This document shows positions 11,800 through 51,790 of a stretch of 64,000 nucleotides of DNA, in pieces. Source of the DNA: an uncultured Acidobacteriota bacterium (GTDB lineage Bacteria > Acidobacteriota > Vicinamibacteria > Vicinamibacterales > 2-12-FULL-66-21); NCBI GenBank assembly GCA_963749835.1, contig CAVVOD010000003.1:257045-321044 (forward strand), read 5' to 3'. Numbering within the stretch: the stretch's first letter is position 1; each line of letters begins with the position of its first letter. The notes beneath the pieces were generated by a model that had not been told where the DNA came from, ran no database searches, and saw only the letters and a program-made list of their open reading frames with translations. The position numbers were made by a program, and so were the translations under genes.

Positions 11800-11889
11800 G
11801 AGTCCCGAATCCCGAACCCGAATCCCGAACCCGAACCCGAGACCCGAGTCCCGAACCGATCCCCGATCCCCGATCCCTATTCCCGAGTT
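11800..11889. repeat. C3-tract tandem array (CCCGAAT/CCCGAAC/CCCGAGN/CCCCGAT units, about 13 C-tracts); G-rich on the minus (sense) strand
   Basis: gagtcccgaatcccgaacccgaatcccgaacccgaacccgagacccgagtcccgaaccgatccccgatccccgatccctattcccgag. It overlaps the stop codon of paralog 3. Confidence 0.85.
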
Positions 11890-14771
11890 TGCGCCGGCTG
11901 ATACACGCGGAATTTCTGGATCGACCACGACGCCGCGTCGTCGGGAGTCGCCGTTTGCGTGATGCGCACGAACTTCGCGGAAACCGGCGCGAACGTGATG
12001 ACGGTCGTCGTCCCCGCCCCCTGTCCTTCTGCGACCGGGCTCCACGAGGCACCATCACTCGATACCTGGACGGTATATGCCCGAGGAAACCCGGAGATCA
12101 TCGTGAATCCCCCGCGGCCGCCGAACTGTCCGGGCCCTGCGGCGCGCGCACCCGCCGGCGCACCAGCTCCTCGTCCTTGAACCGGAGTCGGACCCGGCCC
12201 CGGAGTCCCAGCTGTTCCGGGAGTTGCAGGGGCCGCGCCGCGAGCGCCCCTGCCGCCTGCGGGAGTCGCCGCGGAATCGAACTGGATCTCGGTGATGGAC
12301 GTGGCCGCCGGCAGCTCCACCTGGAACCACATGCCCGGCTGCTGAGGAGCGCCCGTGGACCATGTCCCCGTCGCCAGCGCATTCGCTGCGGCGTCGGGGT
12401 TATGGCTCGCCGTGGCCGTCCATGCTGGCTGCGACGCGAGGAGCACCGGGAGCGAGGCCTCGAGCTCGGCGACGGTCCAGGGCGTGTTGCGATTCGCATC
12501 CGCGGCCCGTGCCCGCGCGACATCCGCCGGTGAGATCAGGGACGCACTGTTCCCAAGGCTGGTCCGAACGTACGACGTCACGGCCGCCATCCAGTCGTCC
12601 TTGTTGGTGCCCATCGGCACCATGACGTCGGTGTAGGTGGTGCCCTGCACGGGCCCCGTCAGTCCGTGCAGCACCGCCTTGATCAGATAATCGCGATGCC
12701 CCAGCACGCGCGGCGAGCCCGTGAGCGGCGGCGCCTTCATCGTCCCGGCCGGCGCTCCATCGACGGGCATGCCCTTTCCGTCCGGTCCGTGACAGGCCGA
12801 GCACAGCTCCGCGTAAATGCCCGCCCCCTCCTGAACGAGCGCCTGCTCCGCCGGCGTCACGGGACCGCCCCGGCCACCGCCGCCGAATCCACCGCCAGTC
12901 GTCGGCGGACGCAGCATCAGGTTGCCGATCTCCTGCACGCCGCGCGCCTTGTTTGCGGCCTGCGCGGCCGTGACTACCTCTTTGAGATCCGCCGCCTTGA
13001 ACAGCTTCAGCGTCAGCATCGCCTGGAGGCTGACGCGCGCGTCCTCATCCTTCGCAAGCTGACGGAAGTCCGCATCGAACGACGTGTCCCCGGCTTTGTA
13101 GAGGGATTCGCTCACACGGATGGCCTGAACCCTGACGAGCGGGTTCAGATCCTTCATCAGGGCGCGCGCCAGCGCCGCGTCGAGTGCGCCAAGCCCTTCG
13201 AGCGTCCACATCGCATGAAAACGTCCCAGCACGCTGGTCGAGTTGCGCGCCATGACCTGCAGCGCGGGCACGACCGACGTGTCCTGACGGAGCACGAGCA
13301 GCTTCTGCGCCGTGTCGCGCCACCAGCCATTCGGATGATCGAGATGCGCGACGAGCTGCGCCGGCTTCTCGTCGAGCATGCGCGGCTGCGTCCGATCCGG
13401 TTCGATGCCGTCGTACACGAGACGCCAGATTCGGCCGTGGCTGATGACTTTGTCGAGCTGAAGCTGGTGAATTTTTGCGCGCAGATACGATCCAGGTTCC
13501 GTCCACTGCGATTCCTGGATGATGCCGTGGTACATGTCCACGATATACAGCGTGCCGTCGGGGGCCGTCGCCATGTTCACGGGTCGGAACAGCGGATCCA
13601 GGCTCAGGATGAACTCGGAATTCGGATAGGGATTGCGCAGCTGCGTGAGCCCCTCGGTCACCACCACCTTCGAGCGTCGAACGAGCCGTCCCACCGGCTC
13701 GGCGAAGATCAGATCGCCACGGAGATCCGCCGGCAGCCTGTCGCCCCGGAATATGTCGGGACCACAGGTGGCGGTGAAATGATTCAGCACCCCGATCGGC
13801 ATCCGGACGCGGCTCATGCCTCCCTGCATGTCGGCGATACTGGGCGCCGGCCACGTCACCTCGAACCCCGGCTCGAACTGGTCCGCCACGTTGAAGGCGC
13901 CGTACACGATCGGCGTCTGGAAATTGAGCGGGCCGCGTTCGCCCCCCGCGTCGACGAACCAGGGCTTGCCGTGATCGTCCTGCGTCAGCCCCCACTGCCC
14001 GAAATTCGGAGCGGTCGGTTCCTTGATCACGCCACCCGGCGTCCAGCGGATCCGGAAGGCGTTGTAGGTGCTGTAGATCCAGTTGTCCAGCGCCCAGATG
14101 AACCCGCTCTGCTGGTGCTCGAGATTCCCACGCCGCCCGGCGCCGCTGAAGAACAGCTCCTTCTTTTCTGCGACACCGTCGCCCGTCGTGTCCGTGTACT
14201 TGAAAATATCGTCCGCGTCGGTCTCCATCGTCAGCACGCTGCCCTTGTCGAGAGGGAGGATGAACCGCGGCAGGACCAGCTTGTCGATGAACACGGAGTG
14301 ACGATCGAAGGTGCCGTCGCCTTTCGTGCTCTCGTGCATGCTGATGCGGCTCACGGGCTCGAACTCGCGGCTGCCGTCGACGTCGAGCATGTAGCTGCGC
14401 ATCTCGTTCACGTAGAGCCGGCCATTGCCGTCGAACGCGATCGCGGTTGGATTGATGATCTCCGGATCGGAGAGCACCAGCTCCATCCGGTAGCCGGGGG
14501 GCAGGATGAAGCGCTTCTGCTGCTCCTCCGGCGTGAGCGGCTGGACGGGCGGTTTCGGGGAAAAGTCTCCAGCCATCGGCTGGTTTCCTCGAGCCGGACC
14601 CTGGGCCGGCGCTCCCTGGCCACTCCGGCCTGCCGGCGCGGGGCCGGACGCCGGTGCGGGCGCCTGCGGTGCGCCTTGCGGCTGGGCAAACACCGTCAAA
14701 CACGCGAGCCACACCAGCGACACGATCGGCACCCACGTTTTCGACAGCTTTTTCGTTTTCATTTCTGGCAT
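11877..14771 (-). CDS. PVC-type haem-binding CxxCH / dehydrogenase-like protein with a discoidin-like tail (paralog 3)
   Basis: The track ORF is 11877..15134. The likely start is ATG 14771 or 14762 (MPEMKTKKLSKTWVPIVSLVWLACLTVFAQ). Contains QQKRFILPPGYRMELVLSDPEIINPTAIAFDGNGRLYVNEMRSYM, HPNGWWRDTAQKLLVL and CSACHGPDGKG. Tail: PGMWFQVELP...YTVQVSSDGASW...AKFVRITQTA, interrupted by a long GGRG/Pro-Ala insert. Confidence 0.85.
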   Translation of the reverse strand: MPEMKTKKLSKTWVPIVSLVWLACLTVFAQPQGAPQAPAPASGPAPAGRSGQGAPAQGPARGNQPMAGDFSPKPPVQPLTPEEQQKRFILPPGYRMELVLSDPEIINPTAIAFDGNGRLYVNEMRSYMLDVDGSREFEPVSRISMHESTKGDGTFDRHSVFIDKLVLPRFILPLDKGSVLTMETDADDIFKYTDTTGDGVAEKKELFFSGAGRRGNLEHQQSGFIWALDNWIYSTYNAFRIRWTPGGVIKEPTAPNFGQWGLTQDDHGKPWFVDAGGERGPLNFQTPIVYGAFNVADQFEPGFEVTWPAPSIADMQGGMSRVRMPIGVLNHFTATCGPDIFRGDRLPADLRGDLIFAEPVGRLVRRSKVVVTEGLTQLRNPYPNSEFILSLDPLFRPVNMATAPDGTLYIVDMYHGIIQESQWTEPGSYLRAKIHQLQLDKVISHGRIWRLVYDGIEPDRTQPRMLDEKPAQLVAHLDHPNGWWRDTAQKLLVLRQDTSVVPALQVMARNSTSVLGRFHAMWTLEGLGALDAALARALMKDLNPLVRVQAIRVSESLYKAGDTSFDADFRQLAKDEDARVSLQAMLTLKLFKAADLKEVVTAAQAANKARGVQEIGNLMLRPPTTGGGFGGGGRGGPVTPAEQALVQEGAGIYAELCSACHGPDGKGMPVDGAPAGTMKAPPLTGSPRVLGHRDYLIKAVLHGLTGPVQGTTYTDVMVPMGTNKDDWMAAVTSYVRTSLGNSASLISPADVARARAADANRNTPWTVAELEASLPVLLASQPAWTATASHNPDAAANALATGTWSTGAPQQPGMWFQVELPAATSITEIQFDSAATPAGGRGARGAAPATPGTAGTPGPGPTPVQGRGAGAPAGARAAGPGQFGGRGGFTMISGFPRAYTVQVSSDGASWSPVAEGQGAGTTTVITFAPVSAKFVRITQTATPDDAASWSIQKFRVYQPAQTRE

Positions 14772-14838
14772 AACCCCTATCGCCGCGCCGACCCGGCGCT
14801 CAGCCTTCGGCACGTCGTCACCGCACAGCGAACGACTG

Positions 14839-14860
14839 TCGATGCAATCGTTTGCATCGA
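14839..14860. promoter_or_regulatory. Candidate LacI-family operator (perfect 9-bp inverted repeat around a CG-centred core)
   Basis: TCGATGCAA-TCGT-TTGCATCGA. The inner 14-mer TGCAATCGTTTGCA fits the generic LacI/GalR half-site pattern TGNAA.CG.TTNCA. It lies in the divergent region between paralog 3 (start 14771) and lacI. Confidence 0.5.
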
Positions 14861-14995
14861 TTTCCACCATCGGTGTACACCCCCGCAGGCAGGTTGTCAA
14901 AGACGTTGCGCTCTGCGAAACGCATGCGATTGCTGGATCAATTTGTGGCTCGCCGTGGCCGAGGCGGATATGATGGCGACGTTTCGGGGGGCCAT

Positions 14996-16000
14996 TTGTC
15001 GAACATTTACCAAGTCGCCAAGCGCGCCGCTGTGTCGACCGCAACGGTGTCCCGTGTCCTGAGCCGCCCCGACGTCGTTTCTCCGGAAACCAGGCGCCGG
15101 GTGATGGACGCCGTAAACCTTCTCGGTTACGCACCCAACTCAGCCGCCAAGCACCTCCGCACGCTCCGCTCAGGCCAGCTCCTCGTCATGGTTCCCGACA
15201 TCTCCAATCCCTTCTTCTCGCTCATTCTTCGCGGTATCGAAGAGGCGGCTCGGAAGGAAGGCTATGCCGTGCTGCTCGGCGACACGCAGCACGACGAAGA
15301 GCGGGAAGAACGCTATGCGCTGATGCTCAAGCGGAAGGAAGCCGACGGCCTGATATTCCTCGGTCACCGGCTGCCCCGGACGGCCGCAGGGCTGGTCCGC
15401 TCGTCGTTGCCAGGATGCGCGCCGATCGTCAATGGCTGCGAATTCAGTCCGACGCTCGGTATTCCCAGCGTGCACATCGACAACGCGACCGCGGCGTCCG
15501 AAGCGATGCATCACCTCTACGAGCTCGGGCACCGGCGCATCGGCGTCGTGACCGGTCCACTCGTCAGTCCTCTCAGCCGGGATCGACTGGAGGGGGCCAC
15601 CAGGCGCGCGCAAATCCAGGGAGCCCAGGACGACGTGTTCGTCGCCCAGGGGGATTTCACCATCGAGTCGGGCTCTCTCGCCGGCGATCAGCTGCTCGAT
15701 CAGCCGGAGCCCCCGACGGCGATCTTCTGTTTCAACGATGAAATGGCGATTGGCGTGCTCGGGAGCGCCCGCCGCCGCAACCTCCGCGTGCCCGAGGACC
15801 TCTCCCTCGTCGGATTCGACGACGTGCGGTACGCGGCCCACACGAATCCGCCGCTGACGACAATTGCGCAGCCCATGCAGGAGATCGGCGAGCGCACCGT
15901 CCGCCTGCTGCTCGACATACTGAACGGCAGAACTGTAGCGCCCGTCTCGGTCACGCTTCCCCACAAGCTCGTGGTCCGCTCGAGCACCGCGCGGATCTGA
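14996..16000 (+). CDS. LacI-family transcriptional regulator
   Basis: The track ORF is 14852..16000. The HTH NIYQVAKRAAVSTATVSRVLS begins right after an in-frame TTG at 14996, which is preceded by GGGGGG. ATG 14924 is an alternative start. A periplasmic-binding-protein-like effector domain follows (LLVMVPDISNPFF, AIFCFNDEMAIG). Confidence 0.85.
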   Translation: MSNIYQVAKRAAVSTATVSRVLSRPDVVSPETRRRVMDAVNLLGYAPNSAAKHLRTLRSGQLLVMVPDISNPFFSLILRGIEEAARKEGYAVLLGDTQHDEEREERYALMLKRKEADGLIFLGHRLPRTAAGLVRSSLPGCAPIVNGCEFSPTLGIPSVHIDNATAASEAMHHLYELGHRRIGVVTGPLVSPLSRDRLEGATRRAQIQGAQDDVFVAQGDFTIESGSLAGDQLLDQPEPPTAIFCFNDEMAIGVLGSARRRNLRVPEDLSLVGFDDVRYAAHTNPPLTTIAQPMQEIGERTVRLLLDILNGRTVAPVSVTLPHKLVVRSSTARI

Positions 16001-16007: not shown

Positions 16008-16041
16008 CGGGATTCGGGGGGGCGGGATTCGGGGCTCGGGC
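16008..16041. repeat. G-tract array (GGGATTCGGG-type), plus-strand G-rich
   Basis: cgggattcgggggggcgggattcggggctcgggc, with five G3+ tracts. It lies between the lacI stop and the beta-helix gene and is the reverse-complement family of the CCCGAAT arrays. Confidence 0.6.
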
Positions 16042-16080: not shown

Positions 16081-17151
16081 ATGACCACCAGGCCAGATCA
16101 GCGTCGCGCTTTCCTCCAAATCCTGCTTGCGGCGGGGGTGCTTCCCGTCCGGGCTTTCGGTGGCCAGCGGAAGGTCGCCTTCGACGCCGAGAAGACGGTG
16201 CATCATGTCTATCCGACGGGCCGGATCCAGGACGCGCTGGAAGCCGCGGCGGGAGATCCCGTCAACAAGACCGTCCAGGTCCACGCGGGAACGTACCGTC
16301 CGTCCTCCAGGGGACAGGCGCTCATCTGGCTCAATGCCCGGCACGACGGCATCACACTGGAGGCGGTCGGTGAGGTGATCCTCACTGCCGCCAATGCGGA
16401 GATCTCCGACCCCCGGGCGCCCAGCCATCCCGCAATCGTGAACCACGTGGTCTACTTCGGGGACGGCGTGTCACGCAAGACCGTGTTCCGCGGCTTCAAA
16501 ATCACGGGCGCCAAGAACTTCACGACTGGGTCCGGGGAGAAATCCCCGATCGAATCGGACGACATTCGAAAGACCGCGTTCTTCTATACCGACGGCGGGG
16601 CGATCAAGATTTACGCGCGGTCGTATCCCACGATTGAAAACGTCGACGTCTATGAAAACTATGCGAGTCCGTGCGGAGGGGGCGTGTCGGTCGAGCACCT
16701 CGGCGATCCCCGGGATTCCGTGCTCTTCCGGAACTGCATCTTTCGCAACAACGGCACGCAGACGACGGGATCGGCCGTTGATCTCTTACACGGCAGCCGG
16801 GCAACGATCGAAAACTGCCTCTTCGTCGGCAACGTCTCCAACATGGGCGTTGACTACGTCGGGCTGCTGACCGGCGGCGAGTATCATCCGGAGCATGGCT
16901 CCGGCGCGATGACGGTATTCGAGGGATCGCGCGCAACGGTCAGCCGCAGCACGTTCACGGGCAACTGGAACGGCGTGGATGACGGCGGGACCGGCAGCAC
17001 GTACGTCGCGTCGATCTTCTGGATGAACACGATGGCAGGTGGGATCTCCGCTGGCTCCCGCTATGAGCTCGACATCCTCGACGGCGCCGGGGTCAAGGGC
17101 TCGTTCATCCATGGTGACGGTGAACGACCTCAGAGGGACGATCAAAGCTGA
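16081..17151 (+). CDS. Right-handed parallel beta-helix repeat protein with a twin-arginine signal (possible polysaccharide lyase/hydrolase)
   Basis: 356 aa. TAT-like N-terminus MTTRPDQRRAFLQILLAAGVLPVRAFG. Periodic beta-helix rungs: FRNCIFRNNG, IENCLFVGNVSN, VSRSTFTGNWNG. Confidence 0.7.
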   Translation: MTTRPDQRRAFLQILLAAGVLPVRAFGGQRKVAFDAEKTVHHVYPTGRIQDALEAAAGDPVNKTVQVHAGTYRPSSRGQALIWLNARHDGITLEAVGEVILTAANAEISDPRAPSHPAIVNHVVYFGDGVSRKTVFRGFKITGAKNFTTGSGEKSPIESDDIRKTAFFYTDGGAIKIYARSYPTIENVDVYENYASPCGGGVSVEHLGDPRDSVLFRNCIFRNNGTQTTGSAVDLLHGSRATIENCLFVGNVSNMGVDYVGLLTGGEYHPEHGSGAMTVFEGSRATVSRSTFTGNWNGVDDGGTGSTYVASIFWMNTMAGGISAGSRYELDILDGAGVKGSFIHGDGERPQRDDQS

Positions 17152-27249: not shown

Positions 27250-27264
27250 AAACACAGGCACGAA

Positions 27265-27297: not shown

Positions 27298-27327
27298 TTC
27301 GAAAGCCCGAAAAATCGCGGTTTGTTT

Positions 27328-38211: not shown

Positions 38212-38264
38212 CGCACACCCTGGCCCGCCTTCGCCGCCAAGCGGCTACAGCCTGGCGCGCCGCT

Positions 38265-38328
38265 GGCACCTTGGCACCTTGGCACTCTGGCACCGTGGCA
38301 CCTTGGCACCCTGGCACTTCGGCGCCCT
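38265..38328. repeat. Octamer tandem repeat GGCACCTT x8
   Basis: ggcacctt ggcacctt ggcactct ggcaccgt ggcacctt ggcaccct ggcacttc ggcgccct. It lies in the divergent region between DUF1080 (start 38211) and xylA. Confidence 0.9.
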
Positions 38329-38373
38329 GTCTGATTGCGCGCAGTCCGCGTCCCCGAGTAATCTAGCGCGTTC

Positions 38374-39618: not shown

Positions 39619-39798
39619 ATCAGCCGTCAGCAATCGGCTCTCAGCTATCAGCTATCAGCACGGACTGAAGGTTAAGAGCAGAAACCTGAGACCTTGTATT
39701 GCCAGTTTCCAGTAGCCAGTTTCCAGTGGCCGGCCGGGGACTGGGAACCGATGACTGGCAACTGGGAACTGAACTGACCACTGAGAGCTGAGAGCTGA
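39619..39798. repeat. Composite intergenic repeat block: TCAGCTA heptamers, a CCAGTTT/ACTGGGA inverted arm pair, GAGAGCT heptamers
   Basis: atcagccgtcagcaatcggctctcagctatcagctatcagca ... gccagtttccagtagccagtttccagtggccggccggggactgggaaccgatgactggcaactgggaactgaactgaccactgagagctgagagctga. It fills the xylA-xylB gap from 3 nt after the stop to 5 nt before the ATG. Confidence 0.75.
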
Positions 39799-39802: not shown

Positions 39803-41297
39803 ATGCCCGTCCTAGGAATCGACGTTGGAACGACCGGCTCGCGTGCGCTGCTGCTCGGTGAAGACGGACGCCTGATCGCGTCGACGACGGCGGACCATGC
39901 GCCGTTCCGGTCGCCGCAGGCGGCATGGGCCGAACAGGATCCGGACGACTGGTGGCGCGCGTCGCAGGAGGCGGTCCGTTCGCTGCTGACGCGGACCGGC
40001 ATCTCCCCCAAGGCGATCTCCGCCGTTGGCCTCTCGGGGCAGATGCACGGCGCGGTGCTGCTCGACGATGGCGGCAGGGTGCTGCGGCCGGCGATCATCT
40101 GGTGCGACCAGCGCACCGAGCAGGAGTGCCGGTGGCTCGATGGGCATGTCGGTCCGGCGCGCCTCCTGGAGCTCACCGCCAATCCGGCGCTCACCAACTT
40201 CACGCTCACGAAACTGCTCTGGGTCCGCACCCACGAACCGACGATCTGGAGCCGCGTGAAGCACGTGCTCCTCCCGAAGGATTACATCCGGTATCGACTG
40301 AGCGGCGAGTTCGCGATCGATGTCGCGGATGCCTCCGGAACGCTCATGCTCGACGTCGTCCGCCGCCGCTGGTCGCAGGACATGATGGAGATCGTCGGCA
40401 TCGATGCCGGTGTGCTGCCGGCGCTCTTCGAGTCGCCGGAAGTGTGCGCGCGCGTATCGGAGCAGGGGTCTGCATCGACGGGAATCCCCGCCGGCACACC
40501 TGTCGTCGCGGGTGCGGGTGACCAGGCCGCCGGCGCCGTGGGCATGGGAATCACGCGTCCCGGCACCGTGAGCGCGACCCTGGGAACATCAGGCGTGGTC
40601 TTCGCGGCTACCGACCGGCCCTTCCTGGATCCCGGTGGCCGCCTCCATACGTTCTGCCACGCGATCCCCGATCGATGGCACGTCATGGGGGTCACGCAGG
40701 CGGCGGGGTCTGTCGCTCCGGTGGCTGCGCGATCAGTACGGACTGTCGGAGGCGGGCGATCGCGCGTACGAATCCATGGTGACGGAGGCCTCCGGCGTCG
40801 CGCCCGGAGCCGAGAATGTCCTGTGGGCGCCGTATCTCATGGGTGAGCGCACGCCACACCGGGATCCGAACGTCCGCGCCGCGTTGCTGGGGCTCGCCGC
40901 CAGCCACACGCGCGGACACGTCGTCCGCGCCGTGATGGAAGGCGTGGCGTTCAGCCTGCGCGACTCGTTCACGATTTTTGCGGAGCTCGGCCTGCCGGTG
41001 GAGAAAGTCCGGGTCGGCGGTGGCGGCGCCCGCTCTGACGTGTGGCGTCAGATACAGGCGGACGCCTATGGGATGAGCGTCGAAACAGTCGAGACCGAGG
41101 AGGGAGCTGGATATGGCGCGGCGCTGCTGGCCGGTGTCGGCGCCGGGTACTGGAAATCCGTGGACGAGGCGTGCGATGCCGTCGTCCATACAGCACAGGT
41201 GACGCCCGCCCGGGCGGACGTCGTCCCGGTCATGAGCGACCGCTACGCCCAGTATCGGCGGGTCTATCCGGCCCTTCGGACGATCTACAACCCCTGA
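39803..41297 (+). pseudogene. Xylulokinase (FGGY family) with a 1-nt frameshift at about 40707-40712
   Basis: Track ORF 39803..40846 reads MPVLGIDVGTTGSRALL..., GLSGQMHGAVLLD. It continues in ORF 40635..41297 from SLRWLRDQYGLSE... through PYLMGERTPHRDPN and VGGGARSDVWRQIQADAYG. Confidence 0.8.
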
Positions 41298-41383
41298 AGA
41301 ATCGACCCCGGCAGGAGTCCTGCCGTTTTATCGCCTGTTTTCGGACTTCCTGGTCTCCTTTATTCAGCCGCGGACGTTGCGGC

Positions 41384-42034
41384 ATGCGGGGGATTCGTTT
41401 TATGATCCCCCTCATGGCTACCTTCAAAGTTCCTCGCTGGATTAACCAATCCGTTATCGGTATCTCGGTCGTGGTCACGCTGACGGCGGTATTCGGCGCG
41501 GGTATGCCACCTGATGTCGACCAGAATGCGGCGCCGCCCGCGGCGGCTGCGAAAGACGGGCTGTGCCCGGCTGGATTCACTGGCTCGCCGGAGACGAAGT
41601 GCGTCGATGTCAACGAGTGCGCGGTCCGCAATGGCGGATGCAACAAGCTCGCGGCGTGCGTCAATACTCCTGGTTCGAGAACATGCGGTGGGTGCCCGGA
41701 GGATTTTGCGGGTAACGGGTATGTGGGGTGCTTCGATGCGAACGAATGCCCCAACGGGGACTGCACCAGCCGTCTGCCGATCGGGTTCGAGACCGCGGAG
41801 CCTCCGACGGTGACGACGTCGGGAGACGTGACCGTCGCTTCGACCTCGGCCACCGGAGGTGTCGCCACGTTCACCGCGACGGCAGAGGACAAGGTCGATG
41901 GCAAGCTATCGGCGTCCTGCTCGCCGGCATCAGGATCGACGTTCCCCGTCGGGAAGACGACCGTCAGCTGCTGGGCCACCAACAGCCTCGGCAAGCTGAA
42001 GACCGCATCGCTGGCGGTCACGGTGACGAAGTAG
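41384..42034 (+). CDS. Small secreted protein with a calcium-binding EGF-like module and a C-terminal HYR (hyalin repeat)-like Ig domain
   Basis: The start is uncertain (ATG 41384, 41402 or 41414) and there is a hydrophobic anchor INQSVIGISVVVTLTAVFGAG. cbEGF-like segment: CVDVNECAVRNGGCNKLAACVNTPGSRTCGGC. HYR-like segment: GGVATFTATAEDKVDGKLSASCSPASGSTFPVGKTTVSCWATNSLGK. Confidence 0.65.
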   Translation: MRGIRFMIPLMATFKVPRWINQSVIGISVVVTLTAVFGAGMPPDVDQNAAPPAAAAKDGLCPAGFTGSPETKCVDVNECAVRNGGCNKLAACVNTPGSRTCGGCPEDFAGNGYVGCFDANECPNGDCTSRLPIGFETAEPPTVTTSGDVTVASTSATGGVATFTATAEDKVDGKLSASCSPASGSTFPVGKTTVSCWATNSLGKLKTASLAVTVTK

Positions 42035-42047
42035 CGCTGCGCGCGTC

Positions 42048-42136
42048 GGGATCAGGGATCAGGGATCAAAATCGTGGGTTCTTCAGAATCCCAATCCCCA
42101 ATCCCGAGCCCCGAATCCCGAGTCCCGAATCCCGAT
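42048..42136. repeat. GGGATCA x3 followed by an AATCCC/GAATCCCGA C-tract array (inverted arrangement) between convergent genes
   Basis: gggatcagggatcagggatca aaatcgtgggttcttcag aatcccaatccccaatcccgagccccgaatcccgagtcccgaatcccga. Confidence 0.8.
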
Positions 42137-42159
42137 ACGCGTGCCGAAGGCGAGCTCCG

Positions 42160-43269
42160 CTATGCGAGCATCTCCTTGGAGATCTGCAGGCACTTCGCCA
42201 CTTCGACGATCGGGTCCCCCGGATACTCGAACTCCACGTTCCCGGGAATGTCCCACTTGTTCTGCTGAAGCAGCTTCAATACCGGCTTGATCGGCGTGTC
42301 TCCCTCGCCCCACGGCACGTTCGCGCCGTGATTCTTCTTCCGATCCTTGAGGTGCAGGTGCGTGATCCGGGCGTGATGCTCCTGGATGTACGGCACCGGG
42401 TCGAAGTTCGCGGCCGTGAAGTGGCCGATATCCAGATTGATCGCGTGGTACTTGGAGGCCGCAAGAATCGTCGCGAAGCTCTCGGGCGTCGCGGTCTCGT
42501 CCGGGTTGTCCAGGTTGTCGTGGCCGTGGAAGGCAAGCAGGATCTTGTGCTTGTCGGCAAACGGCGCGGTCCGCTTCGCCATGCTTACCTGGGTCGAGGT
42601 CGAGATCGCCTTCACACCCAGCGCCCCCGCCATCATGAACGCGTACTCGATCTCATCGTCTTTGGTGTTCTTGACGTTCATGTTGAAGCAGAGGATCCGC
42701 AGGTCGATGCCGGCGTCGGTGATCTTCTTCTTCACCGGCGCGAACGTTGCGGCCGTCGCGGCCATCCGCCACTTGCGGAGGGCCTCAGCGCGAGCGTCAG
42801 CTTCTGCCTGTTCCTCCGGCGTCAGCACCCGTCGTCCGCCGCCCTGCCGTCCGGCAGGTGCGGGCCCTGCTGGAGCGGCACCCGCAGCTGGAGCCGGTGT
42901 CCCGCCAGAGGCCGCAGTGGGAGGCGCAGCTGCGGGAGGTGCCGGGGGCGACCCGCCGGCAGTTCCACGACCGCGGCCGCCTGCCGGCGCCATCGGGATC
43001 GGGGCGCCTGCCAGCATCTCGGCGTGGTTCGACATCAACTCCATTTCGCTCAGCCCGATCGTCACATAGGCGGTGATGATGTCCGCGGGGTTGGGGATCG
43101 AGCGGAAGCTGTAGGTGATTGCGCCGATCTGTACGCCGTTGATCTTCGAATCGATCGGCCCGAAGGCCTTCAGGTTGCCGAGAGCGAGCGTCACCGGCAG
43201 CCCGGCGAGCGCGAGTTTGCCGAAGTCTCTGCGTGAGTACAGAAATTCATCCCTGTCGCTGATGGCCAT
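42160..43269 (-). CDS. TAT-exported xylose-isomerase-like TIM-barrel protein with a ~70-aa GGRG/Pro-Ala insert
   Basis: 369 aa. Twin-arginine N-terminus YSRRDFGKLALAGLPVTLALG. Insert: APAGGRGRGTAGGSPPAPPAAAPPTAASGGTPAPAAGAAPAGPAPAGRQGGGRR. The C-terminal barrel (AFHGHDNLDNPDE, HLHLKDRKKNHGANVPWGEGDTP) has an architecture paralogous to 24666..25872. Confidence 0.8.
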   Translation of the reverse strand: MAISDRDEFLYSRRDFGKLALAGLPVTLALGNLKAFGPIDSKINGVQIGAITYSFRSIPNPADIITAYVTIGLSEMELMSNHAEMLAGAPIPMAPAGGRGRGTAGGSPPAPPAAAPPTAASGGTPAPAAGAAPAGPAPAGRQGGGRRVLTPEEQAEADARAEALRKWRMAATAATFAPVKKKITDAGIDLRILCFNMNVKNTKDDEIEYAFMMAGALGVKAISTSTQVSMAKRTAPFADKHKILLAFHGHDNLDNPDETATPESFATILAASKYHAINLDIGHFTAANFDPVPYIQEHHARITHLHLKDRKKNHGANVPWGEGDTPIKPVLKLLQQNKWDIPGNVEFEYPGDPIVEVAKCLQISKEMLA

Positions 43270-44065: not shown

Positions 44066-46141
44066 TCAGAAATCGAATCGATCGATATTCGTCTTGGTGA
44101 ACATCGTGGGCGCGCCGAGCACGATCTCGGTGCCGCGGATCTGGATCTTTCCGAGCCGGCCGGCGTCGATCGACGTGGTGCCCTGGGGAATCTTGTTCTG
44201 CGCGACGAGCGACCCCGCAAGGACGGCGAGGTAACCGAGGTCTCGTGTGTTCCAGAGGACGACCGTCTGGACCCAGCCGTCGTGCACGTACGGCTTGTTG
44301 ATGTTCGGCAGCGAAAGGCCGATGACGTTGACGTCGCGCCGGTTCGCCTGGCGCACCGCTTCCGCGGCCCCAGGCACGGCAGGCGCCGAGATCGCCATCA
44401 CCAGCCTGACCGCCGGAAAGACGCGCATGATCGTCTGCGTCTCGGCGAACGCCTTGTCCCGATCGTCGTCGCTCGGACGCACGGTGGCGAGCTTCAGGTT
44501 CGGGTATTTCTCCGCCAGGCGCTTCTTGATGAACGCAATCCACTCGTTCTGGTTTGCCGCGCTCAATGCCCCGGTGATGATCGCGAACTCACCCTTGCTG
44601 CCGAGAAGCCGGGCGGCCTCGTCCGTCAGGGTGTTCCCGATGCCTTCTGACGTCGCCTGGTTGACGAAATAGTCGCGTGCATCCGGCTCGGCATCGGCGT
44701 CCCAGGTGATGACGTGGATCCCGCGCTCCCGGGCTTTGCGGAGCACGCTCGAGAGGCCACCGCGGTTCTCGACCGCCACGGCAATCACGTCCACCTTTCT
44801 CGTGATCCAGTTCTCGACCAGCTCGTTCTGTTTCGCGGCATCGAGGCTCGTCGGTCCGTCCCAGATCAGGTCCACCCCAAGCTCCTTCGCCGCCTCCTCT
44901 GCGCCTGCACGGCAGCTGACGAAATAGGGGTCCCCTTTCGCCTTCGGCATGACCGCGATCACCAGGCGTTTCGCGGCCGGCACGGGGCCGGGCGCGGCGG
45001 TGTCTGCCGGCCTGCTCGCAGCGGGAGACAATGACCGCACCAGCCAGACATTCGTCGCGGCCACGATCAGCGACCCGGCGACGATCGCTCCGCACAACAC
45101 GGCAACCTGACTGTTCCTCACGGGCATGTCCTCTGGGTCAACGGCCAGCGTATCCGCTTCCGGTGTCGAATATACCTTGGGGGCGTGCCGCGCGCGGCTG
45201 CGCAGCCGGTCGATCGCGATCGTCGCGACGAGCAGCGTGCCGGTCAGGACGCCGGTCAGCTCGGAGGGTAGCGCCGCGAGATGCAGCCCGTTTCGCAGCA
45301 CCGACAACGCGAACAGCCCGATGAGCGTGCCCCACAGCGTGCCTCTCCCGCCGAACACGGACGTACCGCCGAGGACCACAGCGGTGATGGCGTCCAGTTC
45401 GTAGCCGGTCCCCGCGTCCGACTTTGCCTGGCCCATGTGCGCGACATACACGATGGCGGCGACGCTCGAGACGAGCCCGGCGAGCACATACGCGAGCGCC
45501 ACGCGCCGCGGAACCGGAATCCCGGCGTAACGCGCGCCAGCCGCGCCGAAGCCGATCGCATACCAGGCGCGTCCGATGACCGAGCGATGGAGGAGCACGG
45601 CGTAGACCGCCAGCACAATCGCGAACAGCGGCAGCTGCGCCGGAATCACGCCCCAGAGATATCCCTGTCCGAGTGAAACGAAGCGCGCCGGAAAGCCCGT
45701 GTAGTTGACGGCGCCCTGCGTGAGCCCCTCGGCAATGCCGCGAAAGAGTGAAAACGTTCCAAGCGTGACGATGATCGGGGGGATGTTCAGTCGCGCGATG
45801 AGGACGGCGTTCAAGCCTCCGCCGGCGCATCCCGCGAGCATCGCCAGCGCCGCGGCTCCCGCGATCGGCACGTGCCAGTCCTGGGCGGCCGCTCCAAACA
45901 CCACGGCCGCAAGCCCCATCATCGACCCGACCGACAGATCGATGCCGCCGCTGATGATGACGGGCGTCAGGGCAATCGCCAGCAGTCCGAGCTCGACGCT
46001 CAGGCGCGTGATTTCGAAAAAGTTGCCGAGCGTGAGAAAGTTCCGCGCGATCACCGAGAAGAGCGCGATCTCGGCGAGGAGCGCCAGCAGCACGATCCAT
46101 TCGCCGTTCGGAAACCAGCGCGTCCGCCAGTCGCGGATCAT
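44066..46141 (-). CDS. Sugar ABC transporter permease (RbsC/LsrC-like) in one uninterrupted frame with an LsrB/RhaS-like periplasmic sugar-binding domain
   Basis: 691-aa ORF. Residues 1-~315 are a polytopic permease (TPVIISGGIDLSVGSMMGLAAV). From the internal ATG at complement 45127 the sequence is MPVRNSQVAVLCGAIVAGSLIVAATNVW (signal-anchor-like), then an SBP (VIAVMPKAKGDPYFVSCRAGAEEAAKELGVDLIWDGPTSLDAAKQNELVENWI). No stop separates the two parts. Confidence 0.75.
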   Translation of the reverse strand: MIRDWRTRWFPNGEWIVLLALLAEIALFSVIARNFLTLGNFFEITRLSVELGLLAIALTPVIISGGIDLSVGSMMGLAAVVFGAAAQDWHVPIAGAAALAMLAGCAGGGLNAVLIARLNIPPIIVTLGTFSLFRGIAEGLTQGAVNYTGFPARFVSLGQGYLWGVIPAQLPLFAIVLAVYAVLLHRSVIGRAWYAIGFGAAGARYAGIPVPRRVALAYVLAGLVSSVAAIVYVAHMGQAKSDAGTGYELDAITAVVLGGTSVFGGRGTLWGTLIGLFALSVLRNGLHLAALPSELTGVLTGTLLVATIAIDRLRSRARHAPKVYSTPEADTLAVDPEDMPVRNSQVAVLCGAIVAGSLIVAATNVWLVRSLSPAASRPADTAAPGPVPAAKRLVIAVMPKAKGDPYFVSCRAGAEEAAKELGVDLIWDGPTSLDAAKQNELVENWITRKVDVIAVAVENRGGLSSVLRKARERGIHVITWDADAEPDARDYFVNQATSEGIGNTLTDEAARLLGSKGEFAIITGALSAANQNEWIAFIKKRLAEKYPNLKLATVRPSDDDRDKAFAETQTIMRVFPAVRLVMAISAPAVPGAAEAVRQANRRDVNVIGLSLPNINKPYVHDGWVQTVVLWNTRDLGYLAVLAGSLVAQNKIPQGTTSIDAGRLGKIQIRGTEIVLGAPTMFTKTNIDRFDF

Positions 46142-47097
46142 GCAGGCTCGACCACGGCAGCAACCGTGTGAACATCGCGGCGGGCGCGCACCGCATCGAT
46201 CGCCACGGCGGTGAGGATGATGCCCCCCTGGAGCGCCCTCTCCCAGTAGGCATTGACGCCGAGAAACGTCAGAGCCGGACCGATCGCACCGAGCAGCACG
46301 ACTCCCAGGAGTGTGCCCGCAAGGTTGCCCTGTCCACCCCTCACGGCGGCGCCGCCGACGACGGCCGCGGCGATGACCTTCATCTCCAACCCGATTCCGG
46401 CGTTGCTGGGGATCTGGTTGAAGCGGACCGAGTTCAGGAGTGCGGCGAGCCCGGTCAGCGCCCCGGCCAGCGCAAAGACCGAGCAGGTGATCCGAGCCGT
46501 GTTGAGTCCCGCCAGTCGCGCGGCGTGCTCATTGGATCCGGTGGCGTAGATCGCACGCCCGGCCGCGAGGTTCCGCATGCCCCATCCCAGCCCCACTTGC
46601 AGCGCCGCGACAATCGCGAGAGCCACGACCGGGTACGCGCTCTGCGAAAGGCCGAACCACTGAAATCCGGCCGGCAGATTCTGGACCCACGCGCCCTGTG
46701 TCGCCCAGCGCAGCGCGTCCCTGAGGGCGACCATCGTGGCGAGCGTCACGACGACCGAGGGGATGCGGACGTAGGCGACAAGCGCTCCGTTCAGACCGCC
46801 GAGCGCCGCCCCCACCAGGCACGCGGCCACCGCCGCGACAGCCACCGGCGCACCTGATTTCGCGACAACCCCTGCCGCGACGCCGCAAATGGCGAAGACC
46901 GATCCGACCGAGATGTCGATATGGCCGGTCAGGATGACGAGCGTGGCGCCGAGCGCCACGATCAGCACCGGCATGTTGCCGAGAAACAGATCGCTCAGGT
47001 TGTCGCGCGCGAAATAGCCCGGCGCCGCGGCCGCAAGGAGAATCCCCAGCGCCGCAATCGCCAGCGCGATTGATGCTTCTCTCCGGTGTCTTAGCAT
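46138..47097 (-). CDS. Sugar ABC transporter permease (RbsC/LsrD-like)
   Basis: 319 aa, polytopic. Contains LTGHIDISVGSVFAICGV. It has a 4-nt ATGA overlap with the downstream permease-SBP ORF. Confidence 0.85.
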   Translation of the reverse strand: MLRHRREASIALAIAALGILLAAAAPGYFARDNLSDLFLGNMPVLIVALGATLVILTGHIDISVGSVFAICGVAAGVVAKSGAPVAVAAVAACLVGAALGGLNGALVAYVRIPSVVVTLATMVALRDALRWATQGAWVQNLPAGFQWFGLSQSAYPVVALAIVAALQVGLGWGMRNLAAGRAIYATGSNEHAARLAGLNTARITCSVFALAGALTGLAALLNSVRFNQIPSNAGIGLEMKVIAAAVVGGAAVRGGQGNLAGTLLGVVLLGAIGPALTFLGVNAYWERALQGGIILTAVAIDAVRARRDVHTVAAVVEPA

Positions 47098-47106: not shown

Positions 47107-47143
47107 CTAATCCCCAATCCCGAATCCCCAATCCCGAGTCCGG
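47107..47143. repeat. C-tract array AATCCCC/AATCCCG x4 (G-rich on the minus strand, 5' of the permease gene)
   Basis: ctaatccccaatcccgaatccccaatcccgagtccgg. Confidence 0.7.
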
Positions 47144-47243
47144 CCAATTACACCACGACCCGTTGCCGTTCGTTGGCGGGCCCGGCGCTGAGGGGTCGCC
47201 GGTGGCCCTGGCACATGGCTCAACCGTCGCGTGTGCCCCGGAA

Positions 47244-47306
47244 GCACGTGGCACGTAGCACGTAGCACGTAGCACGTAGCACGTAGCACGTAGCACGTAG
47301 CACGTG
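47244..47306. repeat. Heptamer tandem repeat: GCACGTG + GCACGTA x7 + GCACGTG (9 units)
   Basis: Counted base by base from line 47221. There are seven identical GCACGTA units flanked by two CACGTG-containing units. The array ends 12 nt before ATG 47319. Confidence 0.95.
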
Positions 47307-47318
47307 AGAGACTCTGCC

Positions 47319-48797
47319 ATGCGCTGGTGCGTCCTGCTTCTCGTGCTCGTCGCCGTTCCCGTCGGCGCCCAGTCGCCGCGCGAGTTCCGCTGGGCGGCGG
47401 ACCCCGAAGGAGGCGCCCCGTACGTCGAGGCGGATGCGGCAGATCCTTCCCGCGTGCAGGGCTTCGAAGTCGAGATTGCCGACCTGATTACACGCGCACT
47501 CGGTCGAACGCCCCGGTTCATCTTCGTCACGTACGCCTCCATCGATCAATCAGTGGCGCGCGGAGACGTCGAGCTCGGCCTGAACGGACTCGAGGACACC
47601 CCGGCCCGCCGTGCCGCCATGGCCGTCACGGTCCCGTACTACGAGTTCCGGGAAGTCCTCTCCGTCAGGACCGCCGACGCCTCGCGGTTCCGCACCTTGT
47701 CGGACCTGAAGGGGCGGCGCGTCGGGACGCTGGGAGGAACCCTCGCATACGAGATCCTGCTCGGCGCCGGCGGCCGGTTTGGCATCGAGGCCGTGTCCTA
47801 CGACGACGACGTGCATCCCTATAGCGATTTGCTGCTCGGGCGCGTGGACGCCGTTTTACTCGACAACGTGATCGCCGAACGCCGCGGACGTCAGATGACC
47901 GGCGTCGCGATTCAGCCGGAGACCGTCGCGATCGGTCACTACGTGGGCGTACTCGCGCCCCAGAACACCGCCATGCGTGATGACGTCAGCGCCGCGCTGC
48001 TCGGCGCCATGCGTGACGGCTCCCTGGAACGCATCCTTCGGAAGTGGCGGATATGGAACGACGATCAGCCGGCACTCCACGCGAAGCTGCTCAGCGGCTC
48101 CGCACCCATCGCGAGCGCCCAGGAGAGCGCGGCTGCCCCTCCCGCCACACGGTGGCAGATAACGCGACGCTATCTGCCGACGCTCCTCCGCGCGGCGGGT
48201 GTGACGCTCGTCCTCTCCTGCGTTTCCATGGCTGCCGCGGTCGTCCTCGGCATGTTGATCGCAAGCGGCCGCGTGTATGGCGCGGCACCTGTGCGGTTCA
48301 TCCTGACGGGCTACGTGGAGCTGATGCGCGGGACGCCCATCCTGCTCCAGTTGTTCGTCATCTATTACGGACTTGCGGCGGCCATCAAATTGCCGGCCTT
48401 CGTGGCGGCGCTGACGGGGCTGGCGCTGAACTATGCCGCCTACGAGAGCGAGATCTATCGCGGGGCGCTCGAGTCCGTCCCCACCGGGCAGCTCGAGGCG
48501 GCGCGGACACTCGGGTTCACCGAGCGGCAGATCCTGACGCTCATTCGCGGCCCCCAGGCATTTCGCCTGGCGCTCCCTCCGATGACGAACGACTTCGTCG
48601 CGCTGCTGAAAGACTCGTCGCTCGTCTCGGTGCTGACGGTCGTTGAACTGACGAAGCAGACGCAGATCTTCGCCGCCAACATCGGCAGCTGGGTCATTCC
48701 CGGGTCGCTCTGCGCCGCCCTGTACCTCGCCATGTCGCTGCCGCTCGCGGGGGCCGCGCGGCGTCTCGAACGGCGGTGGAAGGCCGCGACGTCATGA
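47319..48797 (+). CDS. Polar amino-acid ABC transporter, substrate-binding domain fused to the permease (GlnP/HisM-like)
   Basis: The track ORF starts at GTG 47304. ATG 47319 gives the signal peptide MRWCVLLLVLVAVPVGAQS. There is an SBP-like half, then TM segments and the EAA-loop region ALNYAAYESEIYRGALESVPTGQLEAARTLGF. Confidence 0.85.
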   Translation: MRWCVLLLVLVAVPVGAQSPREFRWAADPEGGAPYVEADAADPSRVQGFEVEIADLITRALGRTPRFIFVTYASIDQSVARGDVELGLNGLEDTPARRAAMAVTVPYYEFREVLSVRTADASRFRTLSDLKGRRVGTLGGTLAYEILLGAGGRFGIEAVSYDDDVHPYSDLLLGRVDAVLLDNVIAERRGRQMTGVAIQPETVAIGHYVGVLAPQNTAMRDDVSAALLGAMRDGSLERILRKWRIWNDDQPALHAKLLSGSAPIASAQESAAAPPATRWQITRRYLPTLLRAAGVTLVLSCVSMAAAVVLGMLIASGRVYGAAPVRFILTGYVELMRGTPILLQLFVIYYGLAAAIKLPAFVAALTGLALNYAAYESEIYRGALESVPTGQLEAARTLGFTERQILTLIRGPQAFRLALPPMTNDFVALLKDSSLVSVLTVVELTKQTQIFAANIGSWVIPGSLCAALYLAMSLPLAGAARRLERRWKAATS

Positions 48798-49489: not shown

Positions 49490-51711
49490 ATGACTACCTT
49501 GCCCTTTCTGCTTGCTCTGACCCTGAGCTTCAGCGCGCAGGCCGCTCCAGACCAGCCGAAGCCGCAGACCGCTGACAAGAGCGCGATCAATGAAGAGCTC
49601 CTGGACGCCGCACGATCCGGCAACCTGGCGCGTGTCACGAAAGCGCTCGACCAGGGGGCCGACGTCAACGCGGCCAACCGATACAGAGCCACGGCCCTGC
49701 TGGCCGCGGCCGACAAGGGATACATCGAGGTCGTCAAGCTCCTGATCGAGCGCGGCGCGGACCTCAATATCCAGGACACCTTCTACAAGGCCCGCGCGAT
49801 CGACATGGCCGGACAGAACGGCCACACCGCCGTCGTTATGCTGCTGCTCGAAAAAGGATCGCTCGGATCCGGGGACGTGCTGCGGGGCGCGGCCGGCGAG
49901 GGAAACCTCCCGCTCATCCGCGCGGCGCTGAATGGCAAAGATCTGACGAGAGATGAACTGATGGTGGCCGTCGCCAATGCCAGGCGCGGCTCCAACGCGG
50001 AAGCCACGGCAGCGATCGAGAAGAAGCTGGCGTCGATGCCGCCGGATCCGAACGCGATCACGGTTGAGCGAGGTCTGCTGCAGTCATACGCCGGCACCTA
50101 TCGCAACGACCAGACCGGATACACGCTGATCGTCACGCTGTCAGGCGACGAGTTCGGCGCCGCCCCTCCGGGGCGGCCGCCGGGACCGCTCGTCCCAACA
50201 TCGCAGACTTCCTTCAGGATGCTGGGGGCGCCGGTGACCGTCGCATTCTCCGGCCGTGGCGGGATGATCGAGCGCGTCGAGCTCACGCAGGGCACAACGA
50301 CGCAGTCGCTCGTCCGCGTTGCCGAGAGCGCATCCGCATCGGCGGCGCCAGGTGCACCCCCACCGCCGGCCGCCAATGCGCCCGCCGCGTCGCCGCCCGC
50401 ACCCGCATCCTCAGTCCCTTCGCCTGCGCCGGCGAAGCGTGCCGCGGCCATGCCGTGGCCGGCGTTCCGTGGAGCCAACGCGGCGGGCAATGGCGACGGC
50501 CAGGGAGCCGTGAGCGAGTGGAATGTCGACGCCGGAAAGAACGTCCGCTGGAAGACGCCGATCCCCGGCATCTCGAACGCGAGCCCGGTGGTCTGGGGCG
50601 AGAGGATCTTCGTCGTCAGCGCGGTGAGCAGCGCCGGCGACAAAACGTTCCGCACAGGTCTCTATGGCGACGTGAAGCCGGTGGAGGATCTGTCGGAACA
50701 CACCTGGAAGATGTTCTGTCTCGACAAGAAGACCGGGAAGATCCTGTGGGACAAGACCGCGTTCACCGGCCTGCCGAAAGTGAAGCGCCACACCAAGGCG
50801 TCGCAGGCGAACTCCACACCTGCGACCGACGGCACGCACGTGGTCGCACTCTTCGGATCCATCGGGCTGCTCGCCGCCTGGGACATGAACGGCAAAGCCC
50901 TCTGGACGAAAGAGGTCGGCGTACTCGACAGCGGATGGTTCTTCGATCCCACTGTACCAGTGGGGACATTCGAGCTCGCCCATCATTCACGACGGCAAGG
51001 TGATCGTGCAGGCGGACGTCCAGAAGCACTCGTTCATTGCCGCCTTCGACGTGAAGACGGGCGCCGAGGTGTGGCGTACGCCGCGCGAGGAAATATCGAG
51101 CTGGGGAACCCCGACGATCTTCGAGGGACAGATCGTCACGAACGCACCGACCGTGCGTGGCTACGACGTCAAGACCGGGAAAGAACTGTGGAAGCTCGGT
51201 CCGAACTCGGAGGTCACCGTGGGTACGCCGGTCGTCGGCGACGGCCTCGTGTACATCACCGGTGGGTATCCGCCCGTTCGTCCGGTCTATGCCGTGAAGC
51301 CGGGTGCGAGCGGCGACATCAGCATGCCGAAGGACAAGTCGTCCAGCGACGTCATCGCGTGGAGCAACACGTCGGGCACGTACATCCCGACACCGCTGGT
51401 ACTACCAGGGGATCCTCTACACGTGCGGCAACGACGGAGTGGTCACCGCGTATGACGCAAAATCCGGCGAACGCATCTACCGGTCGCGCGTCGGTGGCGG
51501 CGGCGCATTCGCCGCCTCACCCATCGCGGCGGACGGCAGGCTCTACTTCGCAAACGAGGATGGCGACGTCATCGTCGCACTCGCCGGACGGAAGTACGAG
51601 GAGGTCGCAAAGAACTCCATGAAGGAGGTCATCATGACCACCCCGGCGATCTCCGACGGGCTCATCATCGTGCGCACGCTGGGTCACGTTTACGGCATCG
51701 GGGAGAAATGA
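49490..51711 (+). pseudogene. Secreted ankyrin-repeat + PQQ-like beta-propeller protein, interrupted by two frameshifts (about 50950 and about 51400)
   Basis: Track ORFs 49490..51622, 51000..51455 and 51304..51711 carry consecutive homologous parts. They are ankyrin repeats (LLDAARSGNLARVTKALDQGADVNAANRYRATALLAAADKGYIEVVKLLIERGADLN), propeller blades (WPAFRGANAAGNG...SPVVWGERIFVVS), then YQWGHSSSPIIHDGKVIVQAD in frame 2 and YYQGILYTCGNDGVVTAYDAKSGERIY in frame 3. Confidence 0.75.
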
Positions 51712-51712
51712 G

Positions 51713-51790
51713 CAGGGTGCCAGGGGTGCCAGGGGTGCCAGGGGTGACCAGGGGTGACAGGGCGACAGGGCGACAGGGCGACAGGGCGAC
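51713..51790. repeat. G-tract tandem array: (GGGGTGCCA)x3, (GGGGTGAC[C]A)x2, (GGGCGACA)x4
   Basis: cagggtgccaggggtgccaggggtgccaggggtgaccaggggtgacagggcgacagggcgacagggcgacagggcgac. It starts 2 nt after the stop codon. Confidence 0.85.

Follow-up and report, generated by a model that had tools for sequence, protein, structure and literature searches.

We analysed a 64,000-nt stretch of acidobacterial DNA (contig CAVVOD010000003.1, assembly GCA_963749835.1), hereafter the window, in which tandem arrays of short G-rich units, designated A to E, lie in the gaps between genes within positions 11800-51790. The window has a G+C content of 65%, and short-period tandem arrays are numerous in its intergenic gaps, as judged by Tandem Repeats Finder (TRF). 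A preliminary description of this DNA had presented five of these arrays as canonical G-quadruplex (G4) motifs, with the G-rich strand on the sense strand of the neighbouring gene. By direct reading of the letters and a regular-expression scan of both strands for G3+N1-7 repeated four times, we found the arrays at the coordinates first given; the strands and neighbouring genes assigned to them also proved correct, after gene calling with a codon log-odds model and verification of the neighbours with Pfam. We show here that the arrays belong to a known class of G-rich heptameric simple-sequence repeats, the GGGNATC type.

Array A (11799-11888) has its G-rich strand on the minus strand and comprises 12 G3-4 tracts in mixed 6-7-nt units, GGGGATC, GGGACTC, GGGTTC and GGGATTC, with a single 8-nt loop dividing the tracts into two putative quadruplex sequences (PQS) at 11804-11852 and 11861-11884. 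The array overlaps the TAG stop codon (11877-11879) of the minus-strand gene 11877-15134, which encodes a membrane-bound dehydrogenase-like protein with DUF7133, cytochrome c, HEAT and F5/8 type C domains. On the 3' side of the array lies a minus-strand paralog of this gene (8836-11649), whose start is 150-200 nt away. Directly 3' of array A, at its distal end, the minus strand carries a GC hairpin, CTTCCGGC-loop-GCCGGAGG (11769-11793). Array B (16008-16041), G-rich on the plus strand, comprises five G tracts of the GGGATTC type (PQS 16009-16040). It is found 7 nt past the stop (16000) of a plus-strand LacI-family regulator gene (14852-16000, with the real start probably later than 14852) and 39 nt ahead of the start of a plus-strand gene for a beta-helix protein (16081-17151), a synteny kept in the relatives L196 and L197.

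Array C has two arms between convergent genes. The left arm (42048-42068, plus strand) consists of three GGGATCA units, 13 nt past the stop at 42034 of a small plus-strand gene with weak EGF/HYR matches (41384-42034) and a C-terminus kept in relatives; the next GGG occurs only beyond a 10-nt loop, so that the arm contains no canonical PQS. The right arm (42086-42135) is G-rich on the minus strand, with seven G tracts (PQS 42090-42133), and resides 24 nt past the stop at 42160 of a minus-strand gene for a xylose isomerase-like TIM barrel (42160-43269). Array D (47109-47141), also G-rich on the minus strand, has four G tracts in GGGATTG and GGGGATT units (PQS 47112-47135) and lies 11 nt ahead of the ATG at 47097 of the minus-strand ABC permease gene 46138-47097 (BPD_transp_2), in sense orientation and within a divergent promoter region. 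A further array, (AGCACGT) x9, nearly perfect, shares this divergent region with array D (47243-47305) and abuts the predicted start (47304 or 47319) of a fused solute-binding/permease gene.

Array E (51715-51790, plus strand) is built of five GGGTGCCAG units followed by five GGGCGACA units, which together provide nine G tracts with 5-6-nt loops (PQS 51715-51786). It begins 3 nt past the stop (51709-51711) of a plus-strand PQQ beta-propeller frame (51304-51711), the frameshifted C-terminus of the ankyrin (Ank)+PQQ gene 49490-51622. A plus-strand stem-loop of 6 bp, GCGACG-GAGTGAG-CGTCGC (51786-51804), marks the 3' edge of the array, and 41 nt away is the stop of a convergent minus-strand gene for an AI-2E family transporter (51832-53112), to which the G tracts are antisense. 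Elsewhere in the window, an array of TGGCACCT units (38263-38329) is a reverse-complement relative of the array E unit GGGTGCCAG as found at 51715-51762; because this relative carries only GG, array E is a G4-capable variant in a family of units otherwise without this capacity.

By TRF, the period is 7 (and multiples) at arrays A, B, C and D, and 9 and 8 at array E, which is therefore a relative of the GGGNATC class rather than a strict member. Written as four-repeat RNA or DNA oligonucleotides, the G-rich units are GGGAUUC, GGGGAUC, GGGUGCCAG and GGGCGACA. Counting the arms of C separately, five arrays lie between -12 and +25 nt of a stop codon, all with G on the coding strand, and array D alone lies near a start. 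The G tracts of the five stop-proximal arrays would be present in RNA if transcription runs beyond the stop.

The canonical motif was found in five of the six G-rich segments, the exception being the left arm of C with its three tracts. The regular expression gave seven matches in the window, six of them within arrays; the seventh (3191-3212) belongs to no array. In 200 dinucleotide-preserving shuffles of the window the PQS count was 3.5 (sd 1.7, maximum 9), so that the excess is weak when taken alone, and G tracts inside PQS numbered 14 (maximum 36), compared with 41 in the window. Six of the seven PQS fall in non-coding DNA, which makes up ~15% of the window. The non-random part is thus tandem repetition together with intergenic placement, rather than G4 motifs as such. 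G4Hunter scoring, suggested earlier as a check, placed only array B clearly over the usual threshold (mean 1.88); the other means, 1.35 for the right arm of C, 1.30 for D, 1.21 for A, 1.18 for E and 1.14 for the left arm of C, are borderline, mostly within 1.1-1.4.

That long-read errors made or distorted the repeats is a negligible prospect. Two window genes are split between frames, an FGGY sugar kinase gene (N domain 39803-40846, C domain 40635-41297) and the ankyrin + PQQ gene (49490-51622 and 51304-51711), and these represent either long-read assembly indels or true pseudogenes; should the frameshifts stem from faulty assembly, the length of other G runs could be wrong by one. However, short-read unitigs from soil run X1 are identical to 41985-42135 (0 differences), confirming array C base for base, and arrays occur at the same sites in the independent assemblies L121, L196, L198 and L199. 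Coverage of arrays A and B is thin in soil runs X1 and X16. The GAATCCC motif draws very high depth in run X1, implying that it is abundant in soil communities. Over the GAATCCC array (42081-42151), word depth in soil runs X1-X4 reaches up to 850 (run X4), with 0-9 in the flanks, and the soil unitigs end at 42135, where the array breaks short-read assemblies.

We folded the array regions with ViennaRNA, with and without G4 energies, and compared the results with shuffles. The C region folds on both strands as a hairpin between the G array and the C array, at -57.3 kcal/mol (z -4.4) and -60.6 kcal/mol (z -2.9), and its minimum free energy (MFE) structure contains no G4 even with G4 energies on. 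At arrays A, B, D and E, a predicted G4 enters the MFE structure with a gain of 3-8 kcal/mol, and no hairpin there beats the shuffles. Hairpins at the array sites are accordingly strong only at C, with small ones adjoining A and E. A terminator scan of the window found no T tract after the arrays and no canonical terminator at the array sites. Canonical terminators do exist in this genome, for example at 41309-41325, and many other 3' ends in the window have strong hairpins without T runs. Just past the stop of gene 26008-27216, GGGGACACTCACCTTTACGCTAA occurs twice, ~50 nt apart (27217-27320). No tRNA or Rfam family was found in the window, which means that no array belongs to a known RNA.

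The predicted folds bear on the function first proposed for these arrays, an RNA G4 in the mRNA that serves as a roadblock, a 3'-end stabiliser or an intercistronic translation or processing signal, the four-tract fold being what is selected. Consistent with this proposal are the canonical motif in five arrays, the predicted G4s at A, B, D and E where ordinary hairpins do no better than shuffles, and the K+-dependent G4 formed in vitro by related DNA oligonucleotides, together with four units being the commonest array size in Xanthomonas (PMC4692102). Published views on bacterial RNA G4s conflict: they are reported to be abundant and regulatory in some bacteria (PMC6974567), and depleted and harmful in bacteria according to Guo and Bartel (2016), as summarised in PMC8191793. 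Against the proposal stand the hairpin that outcompetes the G4 at C, the borderline G4Hunter means and the three-tract left arm of C, which fills the same kind of slot. With the strand and relative comparisons given below, we regard an RNA G4 function as distinctly unlikely.

GGGNATC-type heptamer repeats were described by Rehm et al. in 2015 in Xanthomonas and Nostoc (PMC4692102). They are intergenic, lie either no more than 50 nt past a stop, on the coding strand, or no more than 50 nt ahead of a start, on the non-coding strand, form 70-75 convergent inverted pairs per genome and vary in length between species; four units are the most frequent array size in Xanthomonas, DNA oligonucleotides of the repeats fold as K+-dependent G4s in vitro, and the adjoining genes share no common functional class (PMC4692102). 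We assign the window arrays to this class because they agree with it in unit type, in intergenic bias, in stop-proximal placement on the sense strand and in the occurrence of convergent inverted pairs. Among the papers available to us, a literature search found no functional follow-up of the 2015 class, and the bare motif GGGATTC returned primer noise only. To place the class more widely, we scanned the motif GGGATTCGGGNYTCGGGATTCGGG in 185,579 species genomes, one genome per species, and obtained at least 115 loci; among the matches listed, these come from Lysobacterales, Acidobacteriota including Vicinamibacterales, Planctomycetota, Saprospiraceae, Nostoc and others. The genome of the window is not among the loci listed. 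From 95 loci with a GC of at least 60%, we collected 162 periodic motif arrays, 151 of them at period 7. Both neighbouring open reading frames (ORFs) were called for 111 of the 162 arrays, from 74 independent loci other than the window. Four tracts is the mode (43/111) in this pooled sample, though the search itself demanded at least four.

The proposed rule that G tracts lie on the sense strand holds locally, for the five stop-proximal arrays, but is not general. Across the 111 pooled arrays the two orientations are about equally common: relative to the nearest gene, the G strand is sense in 55 arrays and antisense in 56. Sense arrays predominate within 50 nt of a stop (44, against 12 antisense) and antisense arrays within 50 nt of a start (34, against 5 sense); between co-directional genes, 35 are sense and 44 antisense. 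The strand rule therefore depends on position, as already published (PMC4692102), and the rule first proposed was a local sample of it. Of the window arrays, the five near stops are of the majority kind, and array D is of the rare kind. The arrays also show a polarity of their own. Relative to the G strand, the median distance to the 5'-side ORF is 13 nt and that to the 3'-side ORF 112 nt; 92 of the 111 arrays obey this polarity (p = 1e-12), which is independent of the orientation of the 5'-side ORF. The even split between strands is a further point against RNA G4 function.

Three candidate accounts of array placement were tried and rejected. Directional growth or decay does not explain the 5'-side polarity, since the repeats are as pure at one end of the array as at the other and identity in either flank is at the random level. 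A general slot between stop and terminator hairpin fails because an inverted partner or stable hairpin occurs within 70 nt of only ~40% of stop-proximal arrays. A tie between the G strand and replication direction was rejected for the window, where the GC skew is below zero throughout and the arrays are divided ~3:3 between strands.

As a control without G4 capacity, we took the intergenic TRF arrays of period 6-9 lacking GGG or CCC (n = 54), which lie a median of 11 nt from the nearer ORF end, with 70% within 20 nt; the G3/C3 arrays (n = 128) lie a median of 9 nt away, with 67% within 20 nt. Since the two kinds of array are equally close, nearness to ORF ends goes with a short repeat period in these genomes and not with G4 capacity. 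The CAGCTGA, AGCACGT and TGGCACCT arrays of the window, none of them G4-capable, are likewise near ORF ends. Units around the palindromic core CAGCTG (TCAGCTG, AGCTATC, AGCTGAT, CAGCTAT) form a non-G4 family of arrays at 3280-3299, 33152-33183, 58980-58997 and 62078-62105, with further copies at 33269-33292, 36321-36348, 39619-39659 and 62123-62147. Four arrays of the family lie 3-22 nt ahead of minus-strand gene starts, and would thus fall in 5' untranslated regions.

The behaviour of the control arrays suits a reading in which the arrays are neutral or selfish slippage repeats that persist only in harmless slots, past stops and before ribosome-binding sites, with G4 potential incidental and the strand bias left by purifying selection against G-rich RNA beside starts. 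The 5 sense and 34 antisense arrays near starts fit this account, as do neighbouring genes without a functional class (PMC4692102). The strong 5'-side polarity does not, as directional growth or decay fails to explain it. We consider neutrality possible but somewhat doubtful, and the comparison of relatives provides evidence on both sides.

For sites A and B we compared the syntenic loci L196-L199, and for site C a set of 80 metagenome loci (L116-L195) encoding orthologs of the TIM-barrel protein 42160-43269. At site A, L196 (97% protein identity) has eight GGGACTC/GGGATTC units followed by a small hairpin as in the window, L198 (90%) has GGGATTA units and L199 (84%) has about ten GGGGATC units. 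The hairpin is kept in L196 (6115-6142) in the form CTTCCGGC-loop-GCCGGA(A/G)G, and members of the hairpin family are also seen in L102 and beside GAATCCC arrays in soil reads. L197 (83%) lacks an array at site A and instead carries a ~116-nt palindromic element that matches window positions 2385-2500. At site B, L197 has three tracts, and in L196 the array is absent between conserved flanks.

Site C is more varied still. L121 (94% amino acid identity) has four G units and four inverted C units, and L116 and L117 (75-77%) have four G units and a different C-rich array. Inverted GTGCTGA/TCAGCAC arrays occupy the site in L134, L136 and L143, and inverted 9-mers in L123, L174 and L175. In L118, L119 and L153 a canonical hairpin-T6 terminator accompanies CGCGGTT heptamers, in L120 and L122 a canonical bidirectional terminator stands alone, and L129 (86%) has no array, the convergent stop being merely 5 nt off. 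The convergent inverted-pair layout is found in L018, L102 and L121 as well. This comparison shows that the slots are stable and that their contents turn over fast, swapping with terminators and other repeats.

The ~116-nt palindromic element of the window (2385-2500) lies directly past the stop (2492) of the minus-strand gene 2492-3271, with GGGACTCG on both sides, and its RNA has an MFE of -66.8 kcal/mol. Copies occur in the Acidobacteriota loci L103 and L104 beside GGGATTC arrays, and variant halves flank the array in L199. The element looks like the repetitive extragenic palindromic (REP) or miniature inverted-repeat transposable element (MITE) type and appears to use the same stop-proximal slot as the arrays.

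Presence or absence and unit turnover among close relatives are what neutral slippage would predict, and the sharp, homogeneous array borders are typical of young arrays. Harder to reconcile with neutrality are the retention of a G-rich sense array at site A in relatives of 84-97% identity despite changes of unit, the recurrence of inverted pairs between convergent genes where relatives carry terminators, and the pattern of variation within arrays: among 53 arrays free of ascertainment by the search pattern, variation is 3.6% at G positions and 7.9% at loop positions, a 2.2-fold difference, with many of the loop changes being to G. The lower variation of G tracts would also suit a selected four-tract fold. 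Such a fold is, on the other hand, difficult to square with the three tracts at site B in L197, with orthologous sites that hold non-G4 arrays and canonical terminators, and with the absence of array B from a 97%-identical relative.

CsrA recognises a GGA motif, a link that serves here only as a lead. GGA occurs in most units (GGGATTC, GGGACTC, GGGGATC, GGGATCA, GGGATTA) and the spacing is regular at 7 nt, as would suit binding-site arrays for a CsrA/RsmA-type protein reading GGA, or for a DNA-binding protein reading sites at 7-bp periods. Units without GGA nonetheless occur in the same arrays or slots (GGGTTC, GGGGCTC, GGGTGCCAG, GGGCGACA), and sense and antisense strands are equally frequent, which makes a binding-site role improbable.

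Phase variation, in which heptamer copy number would alter promoter spacing or untranslated-region length and so toggle the neighbouring genes, is very improbable. Copy number does differ among close relatives, and arrays B and D are 39 and 11 nt upstream of start codons. Five of the six arrays, however, are placed by distance to a stop and not to a promoter, and Rehm et al. reached the same negative conclusion for their repeats (PMC4692102). Contingency repeats lie within the reading frame, or in the promoter spacer, of surface or variable-expression genes; the window arrays follow the stops of ordinary sugar-metabolism and transport genes, and their period of 7-9 nt is no multiple of 3.

Taken together, these observations lead us to suggest, with a probability of roughly 0.4, that the arrays are slippage-made modules that act, or are tolerated, as 3'-end structure. 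The arrays would arise and turn over through slipped-strand replication and would act, or at least be tolerated, as structural modules at 3' ends, with no need of a U tract. Between convergent genes, at a G array opposed by an inverted C array (42048-42135), the RNA would fold as a long hairpin able to stop or protect both transcripts. The same task may fall to G-rich RNA, an R-loop or a G4 where the array stands alone, as at A, B and E, with help at A and E from the small hairpin next to it. G4 capacity is a property of the unit and probably not the reason for array location.

Several observations weigh against a 3'-end role. The equally numerous antisense arrays beside starts are left unaccounted for by a 3'-end function. 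For ~60% of the stop-proximal arrays in the wider sample, no inverted partner and no stable hairpin occurs within 70 nt, and T runs are seldom found; because partner and hairpin are mostly absent, a terminator role of single arrays would rest only on G4 or R-loop chemistry. Over short evolutionary distances the arrays are dispensable, as the missing array B in L196 and the array-free site C in L129 indicate. In 15 arrays, comprising those of the window and of protein-selected loci, G tracts are conserved no better than loops. None of the RNA runs searched for window DNA holds the window; RNA-like runs that hold a Xanthomonas locus consist of assembled contigs, which are interrupted at repeats and carry no strand information, and were set aside. 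In Xanthomonas RNA-seq the G-rich and C-rich strands are both found in transcripts, and Rehm et al. could not assign a function (PMC4692102).

We speculate further that the stop-proximal arrays could form a distinct class of one-directional transcript-end elements, needing no U tract and acting via an RNA G4, a stable rG:dC R-loop or, when paired with an inverted array, a hairpin, which replaces canonical intrinsic terminators in Vicinamibacteria, Lysobacterales and other soil lineages and is continually rebuilt by replication slippage. We hold this extended version to be unlikely. If transcript 3' ends are indeed marked or made by the arrays, this would account for termination in many high-GC soil bacteria where hairpin-plus-U terminators are missing, and a repeat class without a function since 2015 would gain one. 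The arrays are also a known assembly hazard (the L198 contig ends inside one), and because they differ between strains at 97% protein identity they are useful as strain markers. In genomes of 65% GC, G4 motif matches need tandem-repeat and non-G4 controls ahead of structural claims.

The window as a whole resembles a carbohydrate-utilisation region, with LacI, FGGY kinase, xylose isomerase-like TIM barrels, a 3-keto-disaccharide hydrolase and sugar ABC transporters. Among the transporter genes, 44066-46141 fuses an ABC permease (BPD_transp_2) to a periplasmic binding domain (Peripla_BP_4), and 47304-48797 fuses a solute-binding domain (SBP_bac_3) to a permease (BPD_transp_1). Positions 4481-15134 comprise a cluster of paralogous DUF7133/cytochrome c/HEAT/F5-8 type C 'membrane-bound dehydrogenase-like' genes, between whose paralogs a GSDH-type gene sits in the syntenic contig L196. 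Homologs of the protein 11877-15134 carry the names Acidobacteriota, Vicinamibacterales and Luteitalea, and an exact-protein look-up of two window proteins returned no match. The genome is Vicinamibacteria-like. The DNA of the window is found in soil and permafrost metagenomes only at a word share of ~10%.

With intrinsic and bidirectional terminators, the arrays share a position directly past stops and between convergent genes, and at 42048-42135 a strong GC-rich hairpin. They differ in that a U/T tract is part of the intrinsic terminator and no T tract follows any array, and the single arrays (A, B and E) do not themselves form a hairpin. A second point of comparison is provided by the REP sequences and bacterial interspersed mosaic elements (BIMEs) of enterobacteria, imperfect palindromes of ~35 nt in 3' untranslated and intercistronic regions; these change rapidly in evolution and have been proposed to shield upstream mRNA from 3' exonucleases. 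Abundance as short repeats, location and fast evolution are common to both; the enterobacterial elements are palindromes and not tandem heptamers, and the 2385-2500 element and the CTTCCGGC hairpin are more REP-like than the arrays are. Short tandemly repeated repetitive (STRR) sequences of cyanobacteria consist of tandem 7-nt units, with several families per genome, and are intergenic near gene ends. The TAACTGA direct repeats of Beggiatoaceae likewise form tandem 7-nt units in intergenic regions near gene ends and have been proposed to be post-transcriptional signals (PMC4679880). The units of STRR and TAACTGA repeats are not G4-capable, unlike those described here, and the CAGCTGA, AGCACGT and TGGCACCT arrays of the window are their better counterparts.

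The RNA G4 regulators of Shao et al. (2020) resemble the arrays in having G-tract motifs proposed to modulate expression (PMC6974567). Theirs are single motifs in transcripts, inside particular genes and validated by rG4-seq; ours are repeat arrays known from DNA alone, with both strands equally used across taxa. The closest counterparts are the repeats of Rehm et al., from which the window arrays depart in several details: the loop is mostly ATTC, ACTC or GATC rather than AATC, array E has units of 8-9 nt, array D is sense beside a start codon, a rare arrangement, and the host is an acidobacterium. G4 folding was measured for the oligonucleotides of Rehm et al. and is predicted for the window units. 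Common to both are heptameric units that contain a G3-4 tract, a location between genes and, on the coding strand, within 50 nt past stops, convergent inverted pairs, and a type of site that is kept while length and sequence vary between relatives.

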